In this document: piece after piece, positions 876-31,300 of the stretch | Layout: the number at the start of each line of letters is the position of its first letter | Position numbering within the stretch: the stretch's first letter is position 1 | Source: Candidatus Bathyarchaeia archaeon | GTDB lineage: Archaea > Thermoproteota > Bathyarchaeia > Bathyarchaeales > Bathycorpusculaceae | Direction of reading: 5' to 3' | Assembly (NCBI GenBank): GCA_050010755.1 | Contig: JBEKKK010000001.1 | Span: 512,001-576,000 of the forward strand | DNA: 64,000 nt | Made by a program: the position numbers and the translations under genes | Notes under the pieces: model-generated | The model's database searches: none | What the model was told of the DNA's origin: nothing | What the model saw: only the letters and a program-made list of their open reading frames with translations

Positions 876-2459
876 ATGAATGGAGAACTCGTGATGAGTG
901 ATGGAGAAAAACTGCAAAAAGCCGTAGAATTGACCCTTGCGGCAGGGTATCAGCTGGATAAGGGAGCTTTCGAGTTCTTGAACATAATAATGGCGACGGA
1001 AGACCCAGCGGAAGTCATGAGCAAGGCAATCAAACGGCTAGAAGAGCTCGGGCAGAGACCGTTCTTCATTGAAAGGAACTTCTTGGAACGAACTGTAGAA
1101 TTGGAGAAACCGGCAGAAGAAATTGTGAGCGAACCCCTTGAAGACCGGTCAATCCCACTGATAGAACCGCAAACGCCGCAGATTACAGAGAACAAGACGC
1201 CCTTCCACCCTTACGCAAAAGACGTTGAGGCAAGCATCGCCATAATCGACGATCCGAGCACCAAGCTCAGCTCGAGCGGAACTATCGAAGATTACCTGGA
1301 GTATTTTCAAGACCGATTCAAACAGACAGAGAGACTGCTCAGGCAAAGAATGGATGTGAAGAGCGCAGCGTCAGTTATGGACGCCTTGCGGTCCCAATCG
1401 GGGACGAGGCTCAAGATAATTGGTATGATAACCGAGAAGAGAGAGTCGAAACAGAAGACGATACTCACGGTCGAGGATTTGACAGCGAACATGACCGTGC
1501 TTGTGCCCCAGGGTGCATCGTCTGATCTTCAGAAGAAGGCGCGGTTCCTCATGCTCGATCAGGTTGTCTGTCTGGGCGTTGTGAAGACGAGAAGCAATCT
1601 GCTGATCGCAGAAGACATTGTCCTGCCAGACGTGCCTCAAAAGGCACCTCGCAAAGCTCCAGTTCCAGTCTATGCGGTACTCACCTCAGACATGCATGTC
1701 GGTAGCACCAAATTCACGCGAGAAGCCTTCGACCGCTTCATATTGTGGCTGAACGGCAAGTACGGCGATGATAAGTCACGGGAAATTGCAAGTCACGTCA
1801 AGTATGTCCTTGTGGCAGGCGACATAGTCGACGGCGTGGGAGTGTACCCTAACCAAGTGAGGGAACTAGCCATCAAAGACGTACACAAACAGTATAGACT
1901 CGCCGCAAAGTACCTCGAACAAATCCCAGATTACATAGAAGTTATAGTAACACCCGGAAACCACGATGCTCCCAGAAAAGCCCTGCCCCAGCCAGCTATA
2001 GCAGACACTTTCCTCGAAACTCTGCAGGACTCAAGAAAAGTCCGTTCGCTAGGCAGCCCATGCACTCTCAGCTTGCACGGTGTAGAGATACTGGTTTTCC
2101 ATGGACGAAGCTTGGACGATGTGATTTCAACAGTGCCAGACATGAGTCACAGTCACCCCGAAAAAGCGATGAGACTCTTGATGCAGAGCCGGCATTTGGC
2201 ACCTGTATATGGCGGAAAAACACCACTGTCCCCCGAGAACAGAGATCCGCTAGTCATTCAGCGAGTCCCAGACATTTTCCACGCCGGACACGTGCATGCG
2301 TTAGAATACGCTAACTACCGCGGGGTCTTAATCGTGAATTCGGGATGCTGGCAAGAACAAACGGACTACATGCGAAGAAACGGTTTCATGCCAACACCCG
2401 CCAAAGTCCCCGTTGTAAACCTTCAATCCACTGAAGTCACAGTCATTCCGTTCGCATGA
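876..2459 (+). CDS. polB: DNA polymerase II (PolD) small subunit DP1, proofreading exonuclease
   Basis: OB fold plus calcineurin-like phosphoesterase motifs SDMHVGS, GDIVDG, PGNHD, FHGRS, GHVH; next to cdc6; start may be 894. Confidence 0.95.
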   Translation: MNGELVMSDGEKLQKAVELTLAAGYQLDKGAFEFLNIIMATEDPAEVMSKAIKRLEELGQRPFFIERNFLERTVELEKPAEEIVSEPLEDRSIPLIEPQTPQITENKTPFHPYAKDVEASIAIIDDPSTKLSSSGTIEDYLEYFQDRFKQTERLLRQRMDVKSAASVMDALRSQSGTRLKIIGMITEKRESKQKTILTVEDLTANMTVLVPQGASSDLQKKARFLMLDQVVCLGVVKTRSNLLIAEDIVLPDVPQKAPRKAPVPVYAVLTSDMHVGSTKFTREAFDRFILWLNGKYGDDKSREIASHVKYVLVAGDIVDGVGVYPNQVRELAIKDVHKQYRLAAKYLEQIPDYIEVIVTPGNHDAPRKALPQPAIADTFLETLQDSRKVRSLGSPCTLSLHGVEILVFHGRSLDDVISTVPDMSHSHPEKAMRLLMQSRHLAPVYGGKTPLSPENRDPLVIQRVPDIFHAGHVHALEYANYRGVLIVNSGCWQEQTDYMRRNGFMPTPAKVPVVNLQSTEVTVIPFA

Positions 2460-2869: not shown

Positions 2870-4111
2870 TCAGTTGGAGTGTTTCATGAGGCATCTGGGG
2901 CTATAATCGGTTAGACGACCGAGCCTGGTGTCGCCAGCGAACACGTCCTTGATGACGCTGCGTTGGATCTCCAAACGTATCTTTTTTGTGCGGCCATACC
3001 TTCCCATGCTTACAACCTTCGCATTGACCAATCCCATGGCATCAAGCTCGTTCACCAACGTACTCAAACGACGTTGAGTCAGAGGCGTTACACCCAGCTC
3101 AGCACAGAGTTCATCATATATTTCAGAAATCTCACCAGTAATCGCGCCCTTAGCGTTTATCCTAGTTAAGTGGTAAACGCTCAAAACGACCAGCTTAGAA
3201 TGCAGAGTAAGATTCTGAAGACCCTCGAAAACACGGTTATGTTCAATATGTTTCTCAGCGTCACGCACATGCTCCTCAACAACGATTCCCGCCCCCTTCC
3301 GTTCCGCAACTTCGCCAGCCACACGCAGGAGATCCAAGGCGCGCCTCGCATCTCCGTGTTCAGCAGCGGCCAACGCCGCGCAGAGACCCAGAGCAGCCTC
3401 AGACAGCGCGTTGTCGCAGAAAGCAGCCTTCGAACGTTCCGAAAGGATATTCCTCAGTTCGCTCGCGTCGTAAGGCCTGAAGACAATCTCCTCTTCACTC
3501 AGCGAGCTGAGAACACGTGGGTCGAGAAACTCCTTGAACCTAAGATCGTTCGAGATGCCAATGATGGTTACCTTGCTCTTGCTCAAGGTCTCATTTATTC
3601 TCGTCAGCTCATAGAGAAGGCGATCGCCGCGTGATTTCACGAGAGCATCGGCCTCATCTAGCACGATGATGAAGATTACCCTTGAAACGTCGAGCCCAGC
3701 CCTCAGTCTGTCAAAGACTTCCCCTACAGACAACCCCGTGAAAGGAATAGACACGCCCATGCTTTGACACAGACTGGCGAAGACGCGGTACTCGGACCCA
3801 GCCATGCGACAATTGACGTAGCAGAACTTTACAGGAGCGTTGAACTCCTTAGCCCTGAACTCAAGGTGACTTAGCACATACCTCGTCACGGCTGTCTTCC
3901 CCGTGCCGGTTTTTCCGTAAATAAAGAGGTTTGAACTCCTGGCACCTTTGAGCACGGGAGCTACAGTTTCGCCAAGTCGTTTGATCTGTTCGCCCCTGTG
4001 TGGTAGCCTGTCAGGAATATAGTCGTGGCGCAGCACTTCACGATCCTTGAAAATCCGTACGTTACTTACAAACCTCTCAAAAACATCGTCTAGTGCATCA
4101 ATATCACTCAT
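2870..4111 (-). CDS. cdc6: Orc1/Cdc6 replication initiator
   Basis: Walker A GKTGTGKT, Walker B IIVLDEAD, GDARRALDLL, C-terminal wHTH with GRYGRT; adjacent ORBs. Confidence 0.97.
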   Translation of the reverse strand: MSDIDALDDVFERFVSNVRIFKDREVLRHDYIPDRLPHRGEQIKRLGETVAPVLKGARSSNLFIYGKTGTGKTAVTRYVLSHLEFRAKEFNAPVKFCYVNCRMAGSEYRVFASLCQSMGVSIPFTGLSVGEVFDRLRAGLDVSRVIFIIVLDEADALVKSRGDRLLYELTRINETLSKSKVTIIGISNDLRFKEFLDPRVLSSLSEEEIVFRPYDASELRNILSERSKAAFCDNALSEAALGLCAALAAAEHGDARRALDLLRVAGEVAERKGAGIVVEEHVRDAEKHIEHNRVFEGLQNLTLHSKLVVLSVYHLTRINAKGAITGEISEIYDELCAELGVTPLTQRRLSTLVNELDAMGLVNAKVVSMGRYGRTKKIRLEIQRSVIKDVFAGDTRLGRLTDYSPRCLMKHSN

Positions 4112-4140
4112 TTCAACCCCCCCTCGAAATTCAAAGGCAA

Positions 4141-4725
4141 TACCCCCCTTTCCTGTGCAGAGGGATAAGCTATGCCGTACAGAAAACTAAATGGACAACA
4201 CCATAATCCTAAAAGAAGAGTAGGCTCACCATGACGTTACCCGTTTCAAACATACACAGGCCCCATGATTTCCGCTGGAACTCTGTATTAATTCACAAAA
4301 TAATGCTGATTCCTTCTTCTGTAAGGAATATACTCTGAACGGTAACTACCTCTGAACTATTATAATGATCACTGTTAAAGATTTTAGATACACAACTAGA
4401 AAAGTTGCTGAAACAAGCGCATGTAAAAAGCTAATACCTCATTCCAATGGAAACAAAGGGGTGCCTGTCACCTGAAACTCAATAAGATCGACCATTACTC
4501 CCCCTGAAGAACTAGTTTCGGTTTTAAAGATACGCTAAGGTCCTTCAGCAAAGACATGATCACGGTGACAACAGACATGCCTTTCCCATTACGCGCTTCA
4601 CTTTTTGTGAAGGTATTGTGAACTTGATTTGGCAATGTCTCTTTTCAAGCTTTATTGGCTAAGTTATTGATTCGTTTGTGGCCTTTTCTTGTGAATAAAC
4701 CACCCCACAGTTTCTACTGCAGAAC
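4141..4725. other. Replication origin oriC (ORB elements plus AT-rich DUE)
   Basis: ORB TTCCAATGGAAACAAAGGGGTG 4442-4463 (+); inverted ORB GTTCCAGCGGAAATCATGGGG 4281-4261 (-); ORB-like TGCAGTAGAAACTGTGGGGTG 4721-4701 (-); mini-ORB-like near 4143-4160; AT-rich 4283-4440 between the inverted pair; directly upstream of cdc6. Confidence 0.9.
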
Positions 4726-4897
4726 GGCATCAAAGCCAAGCCCGGCCAGTTCTAGCACTTCCACCACTCAGTGAAGTGTGTAATTCAAAAAGAACTGCAA
4801 ATAATACCCTATTTCCTTTTTCCTCCCCTGCTACTGATTCTCATTATTGTGAGCTTCACCGTAACACCTATAACTTGTGAACTGTAAAGTTGTGAAC
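4596..4897. repeat. Cluster of TTGTGA(AC) repeats
   Basis: TTGTGA at 4605, 4616, 4689, 4847, 4875, 4890 (TTGTGAAC at 4616, 4875, 4890); palindromes CTTCAC-N5-GTGAAG 4596-4612 and GTGA-N3-TCAC 4849-4859. Confidence 0.7.
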
Positions 4898-4921
4898 ACC
4901 ACCTAAAGGTACAGACTGCCC

Positions 4922-5350
4922 ATGCCGGCGAGAAAAGTACGCGTCGATTTATTCGATACCGAGGGCAACCGTTACTCGATAAGTTTCGAGGGACAAGTGA
5001 CAAGAGAGAAAGCTTTGCGCCTCTTGGATATGGTGGAACTGCTAGGTGGGATGCCCGGCGGCGGCAATCCAGGGACAGGGCCTATAACACCTGTGAGCCA
5101 GCTGTCGAAGTACGACAAGGTGCGGGGTCTCGTCCAGAGTAACTTTCCAGTTGTCTGGTTCTCCTCGCGGGAGGTTCAATCCGTGTATGAACAGGAGCTC
5201 AAAGAACCAATAAGTCTCAGCACAGTGGCCACATATCTTTCAAGAATGTCAGCCAAGGGCTTCGTTCAGAAAACGGGATCATCAAACAACCTGAGATACA
5301 AAGCGGTTCAAGGCGTTCCGCAAGCAACCCTAAAACAAAAAGTCGCCTGA
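4922..5350 (+). CDS. Uncharacterised protein with C-terminal winged-helix domain
   Basis: Small N-terminal beta/alpha domain, Gly/Pro linker, wHTH-like FSSREVQSVYEQELKEPISLSTVATYLSRMSAKGFVQK. Confidence 0.75.
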   Translation: MPARKVRVDLFDTEGNRYSISFEGQVTREKALRLLDMVELLGGMPGGGNPGTGPITPVSQLSKYDKVRGLVQSNFPVVWFSSREVQSVYEQELKEPISLSTVATYLSRMSAKGFVQKTGSSNNLRYKAVQGVPQATLKQKVA

Positions 5351-5391
5351 CTCGCCGTATCCAAAGAAATTGCTTCATAACGCATTGCCAA

Positions 5392-6105
5392 TCATGTTGG
5401 TTGGGTTTCGGTTTTCTTCAAGAGGCTCTCCATCTCTTTCTTGACGCTGTACTTGAAAGGAATCTTTCCTGTTTCTCTCTCCAAATATCCTTCTTCGTAA
5501 AGTTTTTTCATCAGTCTGGCAGTGTGTTCGCGACTGAGTTTGACTCTCTCCTTGATTTCGGGCGCAGTCTTGGCCCCCTCCGAAACTAGCAGTTCAAGCA
5601 CCCCAACTTCAGTGTCGGTCAGCTGAGCCATTGCCTTATCTCTCTTCAGTGGTATTACGCCTTCAAAATGTGTTTCAGGGGCGATTTTAAGCTGATTAGC
5701 CTGTTCCTCCAAGGTTGCAATCTTGGATGTAATCGTTTCTCGCGACGCAACTAAATCAGATGTTCTTTTATCAAGCTCGACGAGGCGCGTAGAAACACTT
5801 TTTCTGTCCTCTGAATCTACAGCAACCTTACTTTCGAGGGCTCTCATCATTCCGTCAAGTCCTTCTGCCTTCCGCGTAGCCCCATCGGTCCTCGACGCCG
5901 CTGCCTCGACCCTGTATCCAAGAGCTTCGATCTTGCTGGCTTCATGTTTGAGTTGCCTGTTAAAGCTCAATACTATGTCCTCAACTGCCCCCCTCGCCTT
6001 CTCGTACTCTCTTTGCGCCTTTCGAAGCTGTCTATAGTACTCGACGGCCGCAACGACGGTGGTGCCCAGCAATACTCCTAGCAAGGCGAGCAGTGGATCT
6101 AGCAA
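5392..6105 (-). CDS. Membrane-anchored coiled-coil protein with C-terminal wHTH (MarR-like)
   Basis: Probable TTG start at 6105 after GGAGG SD; N-terminal hydrophobic helix LLALLGVLLGTTVVAAV, long heptad region, wHTH LTDTEVGVLELLVSEGAKTAPEIKERVKLSREHTARLMKKLYEEGYL. Confidence 0.8.
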   Translation of the reverse strand: MLDPLLALLGVLLGTTVVAAVEYYRQLRKAQREYEKARGAVEDIVLSFNRQLKHEASKIEALGYRVEAAASRTDGATRKAEGLDGMMRALESKVAVDSEDRKSVSTRLVELDKRTSDLVASRETITSKIATLEEQANQLKIAPETHFEGVIPLKRDKAMAQLTDTEVGVLELLVSEGAKTAPEIKERVKLSREHTARLMKKLYEEGYLERETGKIPFKYSVKKEMESLLKKTETQPT

Positions 6106-6117
6106 ATAGCAGGCCTC

Positions 6118-6404
6118 CGTGATTCCTGTGTGATTACTCGTGATGCATACATGTTGCGTCACACATCACAAGTTTGCCATTCAGAATTTAAATATTATGG
6201 TAATCAACATCAGGAGAGTCGATATGACGTCACACGTCACAGTTTAGATGGAAAGCGTCGGAGAATGTTACTCTCAGATATGGGTGGAAATAGAAGCCGA
6301 TTTTGAAGTCCTTTTCGGATTTGCGAGCTTCTGTTGTTCCTGAGCTTATCTATTTTTGCTTGCTCTGCAGAACCGCGTTTGGAAGTGTGACTTGTGACGT
6401 CACA
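6118..6404. repeat. GTGAY/RTCACA repeat cluster including palindrome TGTGACGTCACA
   Basis: GTGAT at 6119, 6130, 6140; CGTCACA at 6157, 6228, 6235; ATCACAA at 6165; TGTGAC at 6386; perfect 12-bp palindrome 6393-6404. Confidence 0.75.
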
Positions 6405-6879
6405 GAGGCGTTTCTGATGGACTTGAGAGCTGTTTTAGGCTTGTTTCGAGCTGTTCCCTTATCATTTCTATGACTTTTAGATGGTTGCCTAACTCGTCAC
6501 CCTTGTTCGGGATGTCCTTGTAAGCGTCGAGGTACTGGTGCAGTTTGTTCGCGATTTCGAGATAGGGGTCGAGTGTTGTGCTTTCGAAGACTCCTAAGTA
6601 CCCTAGTAGTAGCACCGTGTAGATGGACTTTATGACGTTTTCTTTGGCCTGTCGTAGAGTCCTGTTAAAGGCGCCGCGGCTTATTTTGGCCTTTGTTAGC
6701 CTCAAGCTGGCCTTTTCGTCGTATTTCAACGGTTTGCCCGCGAGATTTTCGGACAAGATGTCTATTAGCAGGGTTTCGAGCTGGGTTCTCGTTAAATGGC
6801 TGTTCTTGGCGATTATTTTGACAATGGGGTCGTTTATGGAACCCGTTAGCCAAGATTGTACGCTATCTTTTAGCTTCAA
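6400..6879 (-). CDS. Uncharacterised HTH protein (HTH_10/sigma region 4-like)
   Basis: LTRTQLETL...ISRGAFNRTLRQAKENV resembles HTH_10-type DNA-binding helices; GAGGT SD before TTG. Confidence 0.65.
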   Translation of the reverse strand: MKLKDSVQSWLTGSINDPIVKIIAKNSHLTRTQLETLLIDILSENLAGKPLKYDEKASLRLTKAKISRGAFNRTLRQAKENVIKSIYTVLLLGYLGVFESTTLDPYLEIANKLHQYLDAYKDIPNKGDELGNHLKVIEMIREQLETSLKQLSSPSETPL

Positions 6880-7005
6880 AGTCTTACCTCTGGAACCTTG
6901 CGCAATGGATACGCTTTTGTATACTGGGTGCGCATTTAAATGTGCCGCTTTAGGCGAGTCTAGGGGGTCTTCCGAAGATGCAAGATTTTTATGCGGGTCG
7001 GCACA

Positions 7006-8196
7006 ATGAACATTGAGGAATGCGGATTGGTTTCACATGCGGAGCCGGCAGAGCGCTTGAAATTGATAAAACCCTCTGGAATACGGCGCTTTTTCGCTTT
7101 GGCCCAAGAAATGCCTGAATGCTTCAATTTGAGCGTAGGCGAGCCCGATTTTAGTGTCCCTCCACACGCATTGGATGGAGGCTGGCAAGCCGTCAAAGAA
7201 GGCAGAACCCACTATGCACCGACGAATGGAATTCCTGAATTGCGGGATGCCCTGGCGCAAAAAGCATTCCGAGACTACGGACTCAATTATGACCCAAACT
7301 GTGAGGTACTTGTCACAGTGGGTGGGACGCAAGCCATTTTCCTAGCTCTGATGGGATTGTTGAACCCCGGCGACGAGGTCCTGATTTCAGATCCCGGGTT
7401 TGTCACATATGAGCCAGGGGTCTTGTTGGCCGGAGGAGTTCCAGTTCACGTCCCCCTGCGTGAAGACAACGATTTCAGGCCTTCCATGAACGATGTGACG
7501 TCACTCATCACGGACAAGTCACGTGTGATGATACTGAATTACCCAAATAATCCAACAGGCTCCGTTCTTTCCTATGATGAAGTCGCTGCGCTATCAAAAG
7601 TTGCTGTCGACTGTGACATGGTTGTGATATCTGATGAAGTATACGAAAAAATGGTCTACGACGGGGCTAACCACTACTGCCTCGCAACATTTCCTGGAAT
7701 GCGTGAACGCACCTTGGTTATCAACTCTTTTTCAAAGACCTACGCCATGACTGGGCTTCGAGTTGGATGCGTGTACGGTCCCAAAGACCTTGTTTCGCCC
7801 CTTTGGCTGGTGAACCAGTATACCGTCGCCTGCGTGGACACTTTTTCGCAGTACGTTGCCTTGGCCGCTTTGAAGGGTCCACAGGATTGCGTCGAAGAAA
7901 TGGTGAGGGAATTCGACAGAAGACGTCACCTTATACATACGAGACTCAATGAGATTGAAGGTTTCAAATGCCAACTTCCGAAAGGTGCTTTCTACGCTTT
8001 TCCAAACATCAGAGATTCAGGCCTCTCCTCGGAGCGGCTAGCAGATCTGCTTGCGAGAGAAGCTAGTGTTCTAACGGTTCCAGGCTCCGCTTTCGGTGCT
8101 TACGGTGAAGGCTATCTTAGGTTGTCTTACGCCTCTGCCTATGAAAACTTGGAAGAAGCATTGAATAGGATGGAAATGGCCCTCAGAAAGCGCTGA
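7006..8196 (+). CDS. PLP-dependent aminotransferase class I/II (aspartate aminotransferase-like)
   Basis: GEPDF, NYPNNPTG, SDEVYE, SFSKTYAMTGLRVG; start 7006 or 6991. Confidence 0.93.
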   Translation: MNIEECGLVSHAEPAERLKLIKPSGIRRFFALAQEMPECFNLSVGEPDFSVPPHALDGGWQAVKEGRTHYAPTNGIPELRDALAQKAFRDYGLNYDPNCEVLVTVGGTQAIFLALMGLLNPGDEVLISDPGFVTYEPGVLLAGGVPVHVPLREDNDFRPSMNDVTSLITDKSRVMILNYPNNPTGSVLSYDEVAALSKVAVDCDMVVISDEVYEKMVYDGANHYCLATFPGMRERTLVINSFSKTYAMTGLRVGCVYGPKDLVSPLWLVNQYTVACVDTFSQYVALAALKGPQDCVEEMVREFDRRRHLIHTRLNEIEGFKCQLPKGAFYAFPNIRDSGLSSERLADLLAREASVLTVPGSAFGAYGEGYLRLSYASAYENLEEALNRMEMALRKR

Positions 8197-28390: not shown

Positions 28391-31300
28391 TCAGCGAAGT
28401 TTCTTTCTCTGTTTGACAGCTGCGATGGCTATGGCGATTAAAGGTATCGCGAAGGCTATCGGTAGGATGTTAGGTTGAAACTCTGGAAGGAGCTGGGTGC
28501 CTTTGATAATTATCTGATGTTCTGAATGCGTGTAATTCAGGTAGATGAACACGTACTGGGCATTTTCTGTTATGCTGAATTCTCCCTGACTCAAAGTTCT
28601 TCCATCAAAGATGACGGTCCAATCGCTGAGTGCGCCAGCGTTGAGAAGGCTTCTAGGAACGGTCACGTTGCAGAACCCTGTGCTGCTGGTTGGCCCTCCG
28701 ACGTTGAAGGCTACTTGCAGGGCGTTGGGATCGAAGGCGAAGTTGGTCACGGTTGAGTTTGTCAGTATGGGCACGTTGTACGTTCCTCCTTGATAGCTGA
28801 CTTGTTGGTTGAAGGCCGTTAGAAACGTCAAGTCCTGGAGGCTGCTCAGAGACATGTTGTTCCACGTCATGGTTGTGCTGTCCAAGGATGTTTGGTCTGG
28901 AGCAGGTACGTCGGATGGTGCCGAGAGGAGAACGGTCTGGTTGCTGCTTGATTCTCCTGTGACTGTGACAGTGAATTTCTCAAAGTCAGTTGGCGGCGTA
29001 AGATCCGATGTTGTGCTCAGCCAACTCTTCAGTTTGAACGTTATCGAGTCAACATTGTCCGCTTGGGGTTTAAGAATCAACCCGCTGAAGTTCGCGTATG
29101 CCCAATCCTGGCCGAGTTCGAATTGAGCTTGGAAGTTGTCAATGTTTATATCAGTCTCGTTGAGCAATCGCAGTTCCCACGGTAACGTGGCACCCGGTGG
29201 CAAGCGTGCCGTGGCGTTGATCTCATCTATATAGATGCTCTTCTCTCGGTTGAGTTCGGCTTCGAAGTCACCTTGAATAGTCTCTGTGGAAGCGAACGTC
29301 ATCCTCCCGTTGACCAAGTCGAACGTCGTTGTCGAAGAGTTGACGGTCGTATAAGTCGTGTTGAGGTAGGACTCGTAAAGGTATTGCAAATAGCTGGAAT
29401 TTTGGGGCGCCAAGTCTGGCAGGATAGAAACTAGGTCGTTTTGTAGTTGACTGTCATTGCTTACGAGCCACGCGTTATAAGACGTTTCACCGTTCGCGCT
29501 AGAATAGGAAGCGTTTAATCCCGCGTCCTTCACGGCGTACGATGTCGCGTTGACGATCTTGAGCAACGCTGCCATCTGGGTTTCTGTCAAGACTGACGAC
29601 CAAGAAGTAGGCGTCGTGGGCGGCACTAACGTGATGAGGTTGTCATACAGTGTCTGTGAATCGCAGGTCAGATGCAAATTCACTTGGGCAATCTGCGACT
29701 CGTAATAATAGCTGAGTACTAGAGAAGCGTTTCTTACCGAAGCATCGGCAGATTCCAGCGTGGCGTGGACGAGTTGCTGCAGATAATCGTCTGTGTATCC
29801 TGACGGAAGCATTAGCGCGGCTAGGGCTCCCGTAAAATCGCCAGTGATCGTGCCGTTGTACATGACGTCTTGACCGAGCGTTGGGTCAGACCACGGGATC
29901 TGTGTTAGGTTCAAATAGTTGCATGTTGAGTAGCCTGAGGTTTCATTATAGAGCGAGTTAGGTCCTTGTCCTGTGAAGTTGGCATTCAGGTTAGCGACGA
30001 ACTGGTTGACGTTGGTCTCATTTACCTGTAGGTCATCGAAGCTTGAATACGTGACGTTCACGTTGCCGTTGAATTGGAGGCTGGTTCGGTTGCCGCTGAA
30101 GTTCACGGTCACGTCGCCAAACGGGAATCCTGCGATAGTGTGGAAGGTGATGTTTCCCTCCACCGTTGTTTCGTCGAAATTTGCGATAATCGTGGCGTCC
30201 GACATGTTGAACGGAAAAACTGTGTTTAGAGCGGTTGTCGGCAGGGTCGTTTGGCCGGTGATGTCTACGTTAAACAGTCCTCCTGAGTACGCGGCGTCAA
30301 GATTGAAGTCCGTGGTGTTGTAGGGGTAAACCGAAGCTTCTTCCTGGGGCAATGTTGTTGAGGCGCTTATTGTGTCGTCCTGGATTCCGTTCTCGTAAAC
30401 CTCGCTTGCATGAATCTCGGTTGCGTTTAGGCTCGAATAGGGGCTTCCTGAGAAAACAACAGTGCCGTTAGAAGTTTCGGTCGTCGTGTTTCCTGTCGTT
30501 TCGAAACCTATACTAGCGTTCATTGGGGGCACGTACGTGTTTTCCGGGTACATGTTCGTGAAATTGAGTGCTCCGTCCACAGCGACGGTGGCGTCGGGAT
30601 AGACTTTGAAGTTGACCTGTATCTTGTTCGAAGGAGCGTCGAAAAGCGTGTAGTTATATTGCATTGAGAGAGGCAGGTTGTCCAGCTCGTTTATGTTGCC
30701 ACCAGGGTAAGACAGGAGTATGGAGCTCACGTTCGTGGGATTAAAGTGGTAATAAGCAATTTCAGGGCCTGAAAAATTCAAGTAAGCCCAACAAATGCCT
30801 ATGCTAAAGTTTTCCTGCTCATACTCATAATCATCTACGATGTTTCCCCAGATTGTTTGTCCCTCTCCCAGCAAACCCATAGCGCTCACCCGGAACTGTC
30901 CAGCTACGGTTACATTGAATTCTATTCCGACTTCAAGATAATTGAAAAGACCGTCGTTGTCAGTGTCGACGCCTCGGTCCGAGATGCGCCCGGTCAGGAA
31001 TGCGTAAACATCGAATTCGGTGTAACGGTAGACCCTTGACAGGGCGACCCAAGATTTGACGTCCAAATACATACCGTTGTCGAGAGAGTAAAGAGAGATC
31101 TCGCCGATGTGTTGGATATTTACGCCAGAGCTAAAAATGGTGGGGCCGCTGAAGGTTACGTTCAGATACTGAATGCCCGTGTCGAGAAAGCCTTGTTGGT
31201 AACCGACGGGGCTTAGCGGGATGCTTTCGTTGATATATGCGCCAAAGAGGTTGGAAGCTAAGACTTCAAAGTTTCCGGCGACTGTCACGTTGATTTGAAC

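Follow-up and report, generated by a model that had tools for sequence, protein, structure and literature searches.

We analyzed a 64,000-nucleotide stretch of the genome of a Candidatus Bathyarchaeia archaeon (contig JBEKKK010000001.1, positions 512,001 to 576,000; hereafter the window), in which three uncharacterized genes, which we will term g1, g2, and g3, lie beside the gene for the replication initiator Orc1/Cdc6. The first 15 kilobases (kb) of the window begin with the small subunit of DNA polymerase D (PolD; 876-2459, plus strand) and a small tautomerase-like open reading frame (ORF), followed by Orc1/Cdc6 (2870-4111, minus strand), a non-coding stretch of 810 base pairs (bp), g1 (4922-5350, plus strand), g2 (5392-6105, minus strand), g3 (6400-6879, minus strand), and an aminotransferase; the large subunit of PolD is encoded further along. 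By its sequence, 2870-4111 is certainly an Orc1/Cdc6 gene: it matches the Pfam models Cdc6_C (E = 4e-27), Cdc6_lid, and AAA, and its orthologs in relatives are 57-96% identical. We call it the Orc1-1 ortholog. A previous reading of the window, made without database searches (the sequence-only reading), had placed three uncharacterized genes beside the replication origin (oriC), and all three ORFs are indeed found at these coordinates, with Orc1/Cdc6 and origin recognition boxes (ORBs) adjoining.

By the usual sequence criteria (an initiator gene, an AT-rich stretch, and inverted ORBs), the non-coding stretch between Orc1 and g1 is an archaeal oriC. ORB1 (4261-4279, minus strand) and ORB2 (4443-4461, plus strand) both match an ORB-type regular expression that has four matches in the whole 2.19-megabase (Mb) genome. 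These two matches face away from the AT-rich stretch between them (4287-4442, GC content of 0.38-0.39 versus about 0.48 for the genome), which we presume to be the unwinding element. Both boxes are also conserved blocks (ORB1 in an alignment of 31 loci from the order; ORB2 as TCCA.tGGAAA...AGGGGTG). A third box, ORB3 (4701-4724, minus strand), was read by eye: it is a conserved block (cACCCCt..gtTTCtAcTGGA.A) that fails the strict regular expression.

The sequence-only reading also described a single array of about 15 TGTGA cores in the DNA that flanks these genes. The count is exact, with seven cores in 4112-4921 and eight in 6106-6404. However, there are really two arrays with different extended motifs, and each follows its own adjacent gene. 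Across the window, the motifs are not more common than in shuffled sequence (16 copies of TTGTGAA versus 13.7 expected, and 36 copies of TGTGAC versus 31 expected). In the entire genome, at least four copies of TTGTGAA within 300 bp are found once, and at least five copies of TGTGAC within 250 bp are found once, in both cases at this locus.

The first array, which we associate with g1, consists of direct repeats of TTGTGAAC over the g1 promoter and between ORB2 and ORB3. The repeats read TTGTGAA(C) and are all on the strand of g1. The promoter-proximal pair (4875-4896) has TTGTGAA twice, 15 bp apart, at −46 and −31 from the g1 start. It lies between the presumed TATA box of g1 (CTATAA at 4868-4873, in the conserved block CTATAActTGTGAA.TGtAAA.TTGTGAAcac) and the Shine-Dalgarno sequence and start codon, and its pattern (TGTGAAN9TGTGAA) is found once in the genome, at the g1 promoter. 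Farther upstream are a degenerate copy at about −152, a TTGTGAA at −232 (4689-4695) that abuts the G-string end of ORB3 (the consensus of the 31 loci is TGTGAA.a.g.cACCCCt), and a distal pair (4605-4622) with TTGTGAA twice, 11 bp from start to start, at −316 and −305. The positions of the distal pair are kept in most of 30 relatives. An extra TGTGA core at −74 (TTGTGAG, with the core at 4848-4852, plus strand) occurs near this position only in the window and in one close relative. Finally, there is an isolated TTGTGAA on the minus strand within the AT-rich stretch (4292-4298). The sequence-only reading singled this core out as lying inside the unwinding element. It is present in the window, but none of 30 related loci has a counterpart at this position, so it is probably there by chance, and we rejected it as a mark of binding within the unwinding element.

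The second array, which we associate with g2, has GTGAYRTCAC palindromes and tandem TGTGAY sites at 7-bp intervals around the g2 promoter. Block B (6224-6241, minus strand; repeat family D1, inverted repeat I1) is a half-site plus a palindrome, TGTGACG-TGTGACGTCA, upstream of the presumed g2 TATA box (6187-6193, minus strand; the ACCATAA...TTTAAAT block, which is conserved in the 31-locus alignment). Block A (6386-6404, plus strand) is the mirror image of block B and reads TGTGACT-TGTGACGTCACA. Its perfect 12-bp palindrome (6393-6404), the sole TGTGACGTCACA in the genome, overlaps the stop codon of g3, and a third core lies 7 bp from it. Block C (6158-6170, minus strand), just downstream of the TATA box, is a tandem, TGTGATG-TGTGAC, with its cores 7 bp apart. 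Block D (6119-6134, minus strand) has two inverted ATCAC cores 11 bp apart (conserved block aATCAC.....aaTCACa) in what is presumably the 5' leader; GAGG and the start codon follow directly. This block is found also in a Nitrosopumilus-type locus. Elsewhere in the genome there are seven further tandem TGTGA pairs at 7 bp, versus two in a reversed-genome control, and GTGAYRTCAC has five occurrences genome-wide. As side observations, blocks B and A are the cores of a longer imperfect inverted repeat (6208-6244 and 6383-6419; 37 nucleotides, 76% complementary, 138 nucleotides apart), which could join the two palindromes or form a structure in the 3' end of g3, and a second copy of GTGACGTCAC, the core of the g2-type palindrome, lies in the aminotransferase gene (7494-7504), about 1.1 kb from block A.

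The g1 protein (142 amino acids, isoelectric point of 9.8) has a conserved β-hairpin and helix of about 40 residues at its N terminus, then a disordered linker, and then a C-terminal winged helix. The winged helix matches Pfam Penicillinase_R (PF03965) above its cut-off (26.9 versus 22.6 bits), with residues 83-136 on model positions 18-72 of 115. The match covers the winged helix-turn-helix part only, and the remainder of the model is unmatched. In a structure model of moderate confidence (predicted local distance difference test, or pLDDT, of 71), the C-terminal winged helix is like those of BlaI, MecI, and Fur, and Foldseek ranks structures of MecI and BlaI among its best matches (E of 6e-3 to 1e-2). 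The description of g1 as a winged helix-turn-helix protein is thus borne out. It is also likely that g1 binds over its own promoter, as BlaI, MecI, and CopY do. In other respects, g1 differs from these regulators. They have an N-terminal winged helix followed by a dimerization domain, whereas the winged helix of g1 is C-terminal, behind a new β-hairpin domain. They recognize TACA/TGTA dyads, whereas the sites that we associate with g1 are direct repeats. Also, no gene for a BlaR1/MecR1-type sensor protease lies next to g1, whose neighbors are Orc1 and g2, and g1 scored only 13 bits against CopY_TcrY (cut-off of 122).

The g2 protein (237 amino acids) has a hydrophobic anchor at its N terminus, a coiled coil of variable sequence, and a MarR/TrmB-type winged helix that hardly varies. 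The TTG start codon at 6105 is correct: GAGG is found just before it, and orthologs align there. (The family scan used a longer ORF of 256 residues that starts at 6162, so that its matched residues, 181-240, correspond to about 162-221 of the 237-residue protein.) The winged helix, LSREHTARLMKKLYEEGYLER, matches TrmB (33.6 bits, cut-off of 25.6) and MarR (26.8 bits, cut-off of 24.6). Unlike in the soluble MarR/TrmB regulators, these matches account for only about 60 residues, and the remainder of g2 is made up of a coiled coil of about 120 residues and a hydrophobic helix at the N terminus. The N-terminal helix has a mean Kyte-Doolittle hydropathy of 2.0 over 19 residues, is followed by basic residues, and is predicted to be a membrane anchor; at the N terminus, a hydropathy of at least 1.6 is reached by 28 of the 29 copies from the order and by 29 of 36 from more distant genomes. 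After it come a conserved segment and then about 90 poorly conserved residues that match tropomyosin, a chemoreceptor, and other coiled coils. The sequence-only reading had given g2 this same build (a membrane segment, a coiled coil, and a winged helix), and these results agree with it. The Pfam and NCBIfam matches of g2 included neither a ParB nor a RacA model, and models of SMC proteins reached just 15-18 bits, with cut-offs of 567-729 bits, on the coiled coil only.

The g3 protein (159 amino acids, basic, isoelectric point of 9.0) is very well conserved, with the invariant motifs RGxFNRxLxQ and LLGYxG, and its structure model is all-helical (pLDDT of 80). It belongs to no assignable family. 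In Pfam, there was only a chance-level match at E ≤ 1, and in NCBIfam there was none. Against the PDB, a profile search of the sequences gave nothing at E ≤ 10, and Foldseek gave nothing better than E = 0.13 with a template-modeling score of 0.26. The sequence-only reading had called g3 HTH_10-like. The models do not confirm this for the g3 of the window, as it falls short of the cut-offs of PF04967, PF04545, and PF02001, and a search of the whole genome at E ≤ 0.01 gave no match to HTH_10 (PF04967). A few distant homologs do match related models over the same region. Among 92 family members that we scanned, there were sub-threshold matches to DUF134 in five (best E = 6e-4), to HTH_10 in two, and to Sigma70_r4 in two, and the distant copy L093 matches all three over residues 30-82 (E = 0.04-0.08, below the cut-offs). 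We therefore keep a helix-turn-helix of the sigma-region-4 type as a weak lead for g3. A protein atlas returned hypothetical Bathyarchaeota clusters plus one lead with a score of 0.78, in which Sigma70_r4 is found on 14% of the members. A profile search of the full library (1.84 billion proteins) found 307 clusters at 50% identity; ten distant members from it had no Pfam match better than E = 0.02, and for six clusters that we looked up, any name that was given was "hypothetical protein." The close homologs that are named are assigned to Bathyarchaeota or Bathyarchaeia. Given these outcomes, we assign no function to g3.

To see how well this arrangement is conserved, consider first a sample of 41 genomes from the order, which includes the window's own. 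Orc1 was found in all 41, g3 in 37, g1 in 36, and g2 in 35. All 30 relatives with the four genes on one contig keep the order and strands of the window (Orc1 minus, g1 plus, g2 minus, g3 minus), with an Orc1-g1 spacer of 674-815 bp. For six further genomes, contig ends intervene or the set was found in part only, and in no order-level genome were the genes found apart on one contig. The repeats are conserved as well. In each of the 31 loci, TGTGA occurs 14-32 times per kb between g2 and g3, versus 0.8-3.4 times per kb elsewhere in the same locus, and 2.6-11.8 times per kb in the Orc1-g1 spacer. In the alignments, the sites lie beside conserved TATA blocks and ORBs, at positions that are conserved to within a few bases. 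The repeats therefore do not speak against the idea of the sequence-only reading: they are about ten times as dense as the surrounding sequence, and they keep their places from locus to locus.

More distant relatives were sampled as 251 Bathyarchaeia genomes (with cut-offs of E ≤ 1e-12 for g2 and E ≤ 1e-90 for the Orc1 ortholog) and, outside the class, as 301 genomes from the phylum. Within the class, g3 was found in 204 genomes, g2 in 179, the Orc1 ortholog in 160, and g1 in 146. Among 33 usable class loci that were fetched around g3 from the other orders, the Orc1 ortholog lies within the stretch in 22 and g2 is missing in nine; six loci read PolD small subunit, g2, g3, without Orc1 or g1, and four have Orc1 and g2 without g1. 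Outside the class, g1 was found in 198 of the 301 genomes, and Orc1 is directly upstream of g1 in 11 of 20 loci that we fetched. In particular, seven of eight loci from a Nitrosopumilus-type family (f39 by our own labels, which we use for families, loci, and genomes) have PolD small subunit or Orc1, a spacer, g1, g2, and g3 in an order that matches the window; in the eighth (L088), the contig ends after g1. In public sources, a hypothetical protein of a Nitrosopumilus species is identical to one of the f39 copies of g1, and the f47 copy is assigned to Caldarchaeum. Where sources name these proteins, the label is hypothetical or uncharacterized; the sole exception is a truncated member that is labeled a predicted transcriptional regulator. 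As a control for synteny in general, the aminotransferase is syntenic beside g3 in 20 of the 30 loci from the order but in none of the 33 from the class or the 20 from the phylum. By comparison, the order of the genes and the positions of the sites are preserved in all 30 loci from the order, in the majority of Bathyarchaeia, and in the seven Nitrosopumilus-type loci. Thus, the homologs stay tied to Orc1 and oriC far beyond the loss of background synteny, as one would want for the origin link that the sequence-only reading proposed.

It is g1 that follows the origin. By family, g1 was found only where the Orc1 ortholog was found, the sole exception being one fragmented genome of f1. In f24, the Orc1 ortholog and g1 were each found in 1 of 59 genomes (the same genome), while g2 was found in 52 and g3 in 48, and the ORBs are missing (0 matches in six loci). 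Neither the Orc1 ortholog nor g1 was found in f21, f18, f33, or f13. In five genomes that carry PolD small subunit, g2, and g3 in this order, the sole Orc1 is a paralog at 30-33% identity and g1 is lacking, and all six loci with this order have zero ORB matches. Conversely, g1 has ORB matches beside it even where Orc1 is at a distance of 3 kb (L064, L082) or where the fetched stretch yielded no Orc1 (L054, L067, L080). The main origin seems to have been replaced in a large part of Bathyarchaeia (58 of the 59 sampled f24 genomes, and also f21, f18, f33, and f13), where the one Orc1 that remains is a paralog at about 30% identity; this bears on origin annotation and on origin turnover, above all in f24, a large family. 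(The window's own genome, which is 93% complete, has a single Orc1/Cdc6 match, whereas most of its relatives hold a second paralog at 28-34% identity; because of this incompleteness, the missing paralog may simply be unassembled.) In contrast, g2 and g3 can live without the origin, and g2 was not found in f14, f20, f22, f23, f25, f26, or f27, which keep Orc1 and g1. The three genes are therefore not one obligate system, and this origin can do without any single one of them.

To assign the arrays to the proteins, we compared loci that lack one of the genes. If we define a cluster as at least six TGTGA in 300 bp, then there are clusters upstream of g2 in 12 of 24 class loci that have g2, including loci without g1 (L052, L055) and loci without the origin (L058, L065, L066), and the nine class loci without g2 have no TGTGA cluster anywhere. 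Upstream of g1, TGTGAA is among the most common hexamers in some loci without g2 (L063, L064, L084), as is GTGAAC in L082, but not in four others. We considered whether one protein could bind both arrays and rejected this, as each array persists without the other gene. Outside the class, all 11 loci with g1 adjoining Orc1 have TGTGAA or TGTTAA (4-12 copies) as one of their top hexamers, whereas none of eight loci without this adjacency does. The TGTTAA variant comes from f39. In seven f39 loci that we tabulated, the g2 array is kept as ATCACA/TGTGAT upstream of g2 (4-10 TGTGA in 250 bp) and the g2 helix SREHTSRLMKKL is unchanged, while the Orc1-g1 spacer has TGTTAA 6-12 times in place of TGTGAA, interleaved with ORB-like elements, and the recognition helix of g1 reads LSI/V-ISTYL instead of LSTVSTYL. 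This joint change is what one would expect if g1 reads that base. We infer the assignment of sites to g1 and to g2 from these correlations.

We propose that the locus is an old, conserved neighborhood that flanks an Orc1-dependent origin of Thermoproteota, and that it encodes two autoregulated, site-specific winged-helix DNA-binding proteins, with the g1 array being part of the origin. We put the chance that this reading is correct at about even. That both arrays surround TATA boxes suggests autoregulation, as this is the usual layout for it. Specifically, g1 probably binds the direct TTGTGAAC repeats. It should repress itself because two of the repeats lie between its own TATA box and its start codon, and it would occupy origin DNA beside Orc1 because the repeats at about −152, −232, −305, and −316 lie between or against ORB2 and ORB3. 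At the origin, g1 could help or hinder Orc1, or it could couple its own expression to the state of the origin, and we think it likely on balance that an origin-related role is part of its function. The g2 protein probably dimerizes through its coiled coil, is held at the membrane by its N-terminal helix, and recognizes the GTGAYRTCAC palindromes and 7-bp tandem TGTGAY half-sites that cover its own core promoter and extend to both sides of it. It too would be autoregulated, and either as a side effect or as the purpose, DNA 1.7-2.1 kb from the unwinding region would be kept at the membrane. As for g3, it is a helical protein that is close to core for the class, possibly with a sigma-region-4-like helix-turn-helix. 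Autoregulation, membrane insertion, and every effect on replication are things that we infer from the sequences.

Several observations weigh against this proposal. First, the related genomes are not independent of one another. Second, g1 is missing from some families that keep the Orc1 ortholog (in f30, 0 of 3 genomes have g1 and 3 of 3 have Orc1; in f17, 5 of 14 have g1 and 11 of 14 have Orc1), so g1 cannot be essential to this origin. Also, in 8 of the 20 loci outside the class, there is no Orc1 within 6 kb of g1. Third, the joint loss of Orc1-1, g1, and the ORBs in f24, f18, and f33 may be a single contiguous deletion. As the origin-less loci share the order PolD small subunit, g2, g3, we count the joint loss as weak evidence. 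Fourth, 12 of the 24 class loci with g2 are below our threshold for a TGTGA cluster. Fifth, the G-to-T change in the motif and the change in the recognition helix of g1 are found in a single lineage and so count as one event. Finally, the haloarchaeal oapABC genes are a warning that position beside an origin can mislead about function. According to two reports, these form a highly conserved three-gene cluster across the main origin from a conserved Orc paralog (PMC7002104, PMC7921747). OapA is a small GTPase, now known as ArvA, that drives vesicle formation, and OapB is a DUF2073 protein (PMC10927574). The oapABC cluster is the closest precedent for our locus in that it is a conserved set of origin-flanking genes whose function is not evident from sequence. 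It differs in that g1, g2, and g3 have no match to a GTPase or to DUF2073, in that the accessible parts of these reports mention no repeated target sites for oapABC, and in that, at our locus, only g1 is divergent from orc1.

The strongest competing explanation is that g1 and g2 are ordinary autoregulated transcription factors, perhaps with a few scattered targets, whose position at oriC is inherited or affects only dosage or timing, without any role in replication or in the position of the chromosome. We think this somewhat unlikely. It would account for the arrays around the TATA boxes, whose positions are typical for archaeal repressors, for the persistence of g2 and g3 in f24 without the Orc1 ortholog, g1, or ORBs, and for the families, several in each case, that have the origin but do without g1 or without g2. 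The excess of tandem TGTGA pairs elsewhere in the genome (seven versus two) makes a small regulon possible, and oapABC is a case in which genes conserved beside an origin do something unrelated. However, plain regulation does not readily explain the four or five g1-type sites that lie 150-320 bp upstream of the promoter, between or against the ORBs, at conserved positions, with the same arrangement in a Nitrosopumilus-type locus. It is the g1 sites, and not the g2 sites, that are interleaved with the ORBs. Nor does it explain why multi-copy arrays are found only where g1 adjoins Orc1 (11 of 11 versus 0 of 8 loci), why the linkage outlasts background synteny by a wide margin, or why ORBs remain with g1 when Orc1 has been displaced. 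Even if these are plain autoregulators, the two motifs, the apparent joint change of a motif base and a recognition-helix residue, and the apparent replacement of the Orc1-1 origin in a large family would stay useful.

A stronger form of our proposal is that g1 is an unrecognized accessory protein that binds Orc1-dependent origins across Thermoproteota, from Bathyarchaeia to Nitrosopumilus, with an array that belongs to the structure of oriC and determines at what time, or on which flank, Orc1 can load the helicase, and that g2 is a membrane tether that positions the origin-proximal part of the chromosome. We consider it unlikely that both halves of this are right. If they are, these would be the first archaeal counterparts of the bacterial origin regulators and anchors. 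We know of no established sequence-specific component of archaeal origins beyond Orc1/Cdc6 and WhiP, and to our knowledge nothing is known about how origins are positioned in archaea that lack ParA-type systems. In bacteria, the accessory origin-binding proteins CtrA, Spo0A, and SeqA have sites that are interspersed with initiator sites inside the origin. The predicted binding sites of g1 are interspersed with initiator sites in the same way. Nevertheless, these proteins have no homology to g1, and g1 is absent from some lineages that have the Orc1 ortholog. The same likeness and differences hold for the archaeal initiator WhiP/Cdt1, a winged-helix protein that is encoded beside the origin that it binds (PMC4010727). 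In a literature search that was largely confined to papers outside subscription, we found no description of these protein families or of TGTGAA/TGTTAA arrays in archaeal origins. The locus thus gives two testable candidates, a small winged-helix protein with ORB-interleaved sites and an adjoining, predicted membrane-anchored, coiled-coil DNA-binding protein, both of which are conserved from uncultured Bathyarchaeia to Nitrosopumilus-type genomes. Nitrosopumilus includes cultured strains.

Another possibility is the model of the sequence-only reading itself, in which the three genes are one system for segregation: the coiled-coil protein, anchored in the membrane, would attach to repeats that resemble a centromere and so fasten the origin to the membrane. 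We consider this improbable. The link to the origin and the build of g2, with its predicted membrane helix, coiled coil, and winged helix, stood up. The g2 sites, in contrast, are not within the origin: they are 1.7-2.1 kb from the unwinding region, at the promoter of g2, as the genome's only dense array of this kind. Both this build and the array recur in genomes from Bathyarchaeia through to the Nitrosopumilus type, and g2 has almost no extracellular part and so no obvious role as a sensor. It is possible, then, that g2 tethers DNA to the membrane. As a dedicated origin tether, though, it is argued against by its persistence without this origin (g2 and its array are kept in loci that lack the Orc1 ortholog and ORBs) and by its patchy distribution (it was not found in the seven families listed above that have the origin and g1). 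Also, the presence of one of the three genes does not entail that of the others, the array forms one 290-bp cluster at g2's own promoter instead of being dispersed over sites near the origin, and there is no conserved motor or partner, as a HerA-like ATPase at some of these loci is confined to one order and often lost.

The bacterial proteins RacA and RocS, which tether the origin to the membrane or the pole and with which g2 invites comparison, combine a DNA-binding domain, a coiled coil, and attachment to the cell envelope, and they act on origin-proximal DNA. RocS has an N-terminal helix-turn-helix, a central coiled coil, and a C-terminal amphipathic membrane helix, and it partners with ParB. 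Another bacterial origin tether, RicO (bioRxiv 10.64898/2026.03.06.710092), belongs to the same comparison. In g2, the order of the domains is reversed, with the anchor at the N terminus and the winged helix at the C terminus. The anchor of g2 is a hydrophobic helix instead of an amphipathic helix or a partner protein. Also, in place of dispersed sites, g2 has one compact array at its own promoter, and g2 persists where the origin has been lost. A sequence relationship between g2 and these tethers was not apparent, as no such NCBIfam model matched at E ≤ 0.1.

The ATPase just mentioned is one of two extra genes that, in 12 of 30 order loci, lie between g1 and g2 on the strand of g1 (for example, L031:3554-6137). 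The corresponding slot in the window is just 41 bp (5351-5391). One of the genes encodes a protein of 333-351 residues without a family and the other a HerA-family ATPase of 516-532 residues. Thus, the sequence-only reading was right that there is no ParA, SegA, or SMC gene in the window's module, but those 12 loci do hold a HerA-family ATPase and a NurA-sized gene. A 519-residue ATPase matches DUF87 (44.1 bits versus a cut-off of 23.2, E = 3e-11), and it scores 62-65 bits with the HerA and CedD equivalog models, whose cut-offs are 600-970 bits. A 351-residue partner has no Pfam, NCBIfam, or PADLOC match, and it is NurA-like in size and position only. The ATPase was found in 14 of the 41 order genomes, always at this locus; the window's genome is not among them, and most genomes have lost the pair. 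Of the 14 copies, one served as the query, nine share 68-86% identity with it, and the remaining four either are interrupted or split by stop codons or received no rating. The copy in G032 is broken by stop codons, and L025 has a fused remnant of 181 residues. These genes raise the possibility that g1, g2, and g3 are the regulatory remains of a HerA/NurA-type cassette for repair, DNA transfer, or defense, with g1 as the first gene of an operon whose ATPase and nuclease were lost here, but although the shared strand, the fused remnant, and the broken copy would fit, this is very improbable, because the pair is found in 0 of 33 class-level and 0 of 20 phylum-level loci and because none of the PADLOC defense models matched g1 or g3 and those that matched g2 did so only through its winged helix. 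As the pair is limited to one order and g1, g2, and g3 are class- to phylum-wide, the pair is instead an insertion into an older locus.

A few minor observations remain. An Rfam scan of 4000-7100 gave one chance-level match (SNORD15, 18 bits versus a gathering score of 75), and scans for bacterial-type promoters and terminators, a method that is not applicable to archaea, were at the level of shuffled sequence. In some relatives, there is a single in-frame TAA or TAG within the match to Orc1 (G040, G132), to g3 (G178, G190, G232), or to g2 (G059, G205, G211, G267), which may reflect alignments that overrun the ends of genes, sequencing errors, or broken genes. Finally, far from the locus, two TGTGAC abut each other at 28958-28969.

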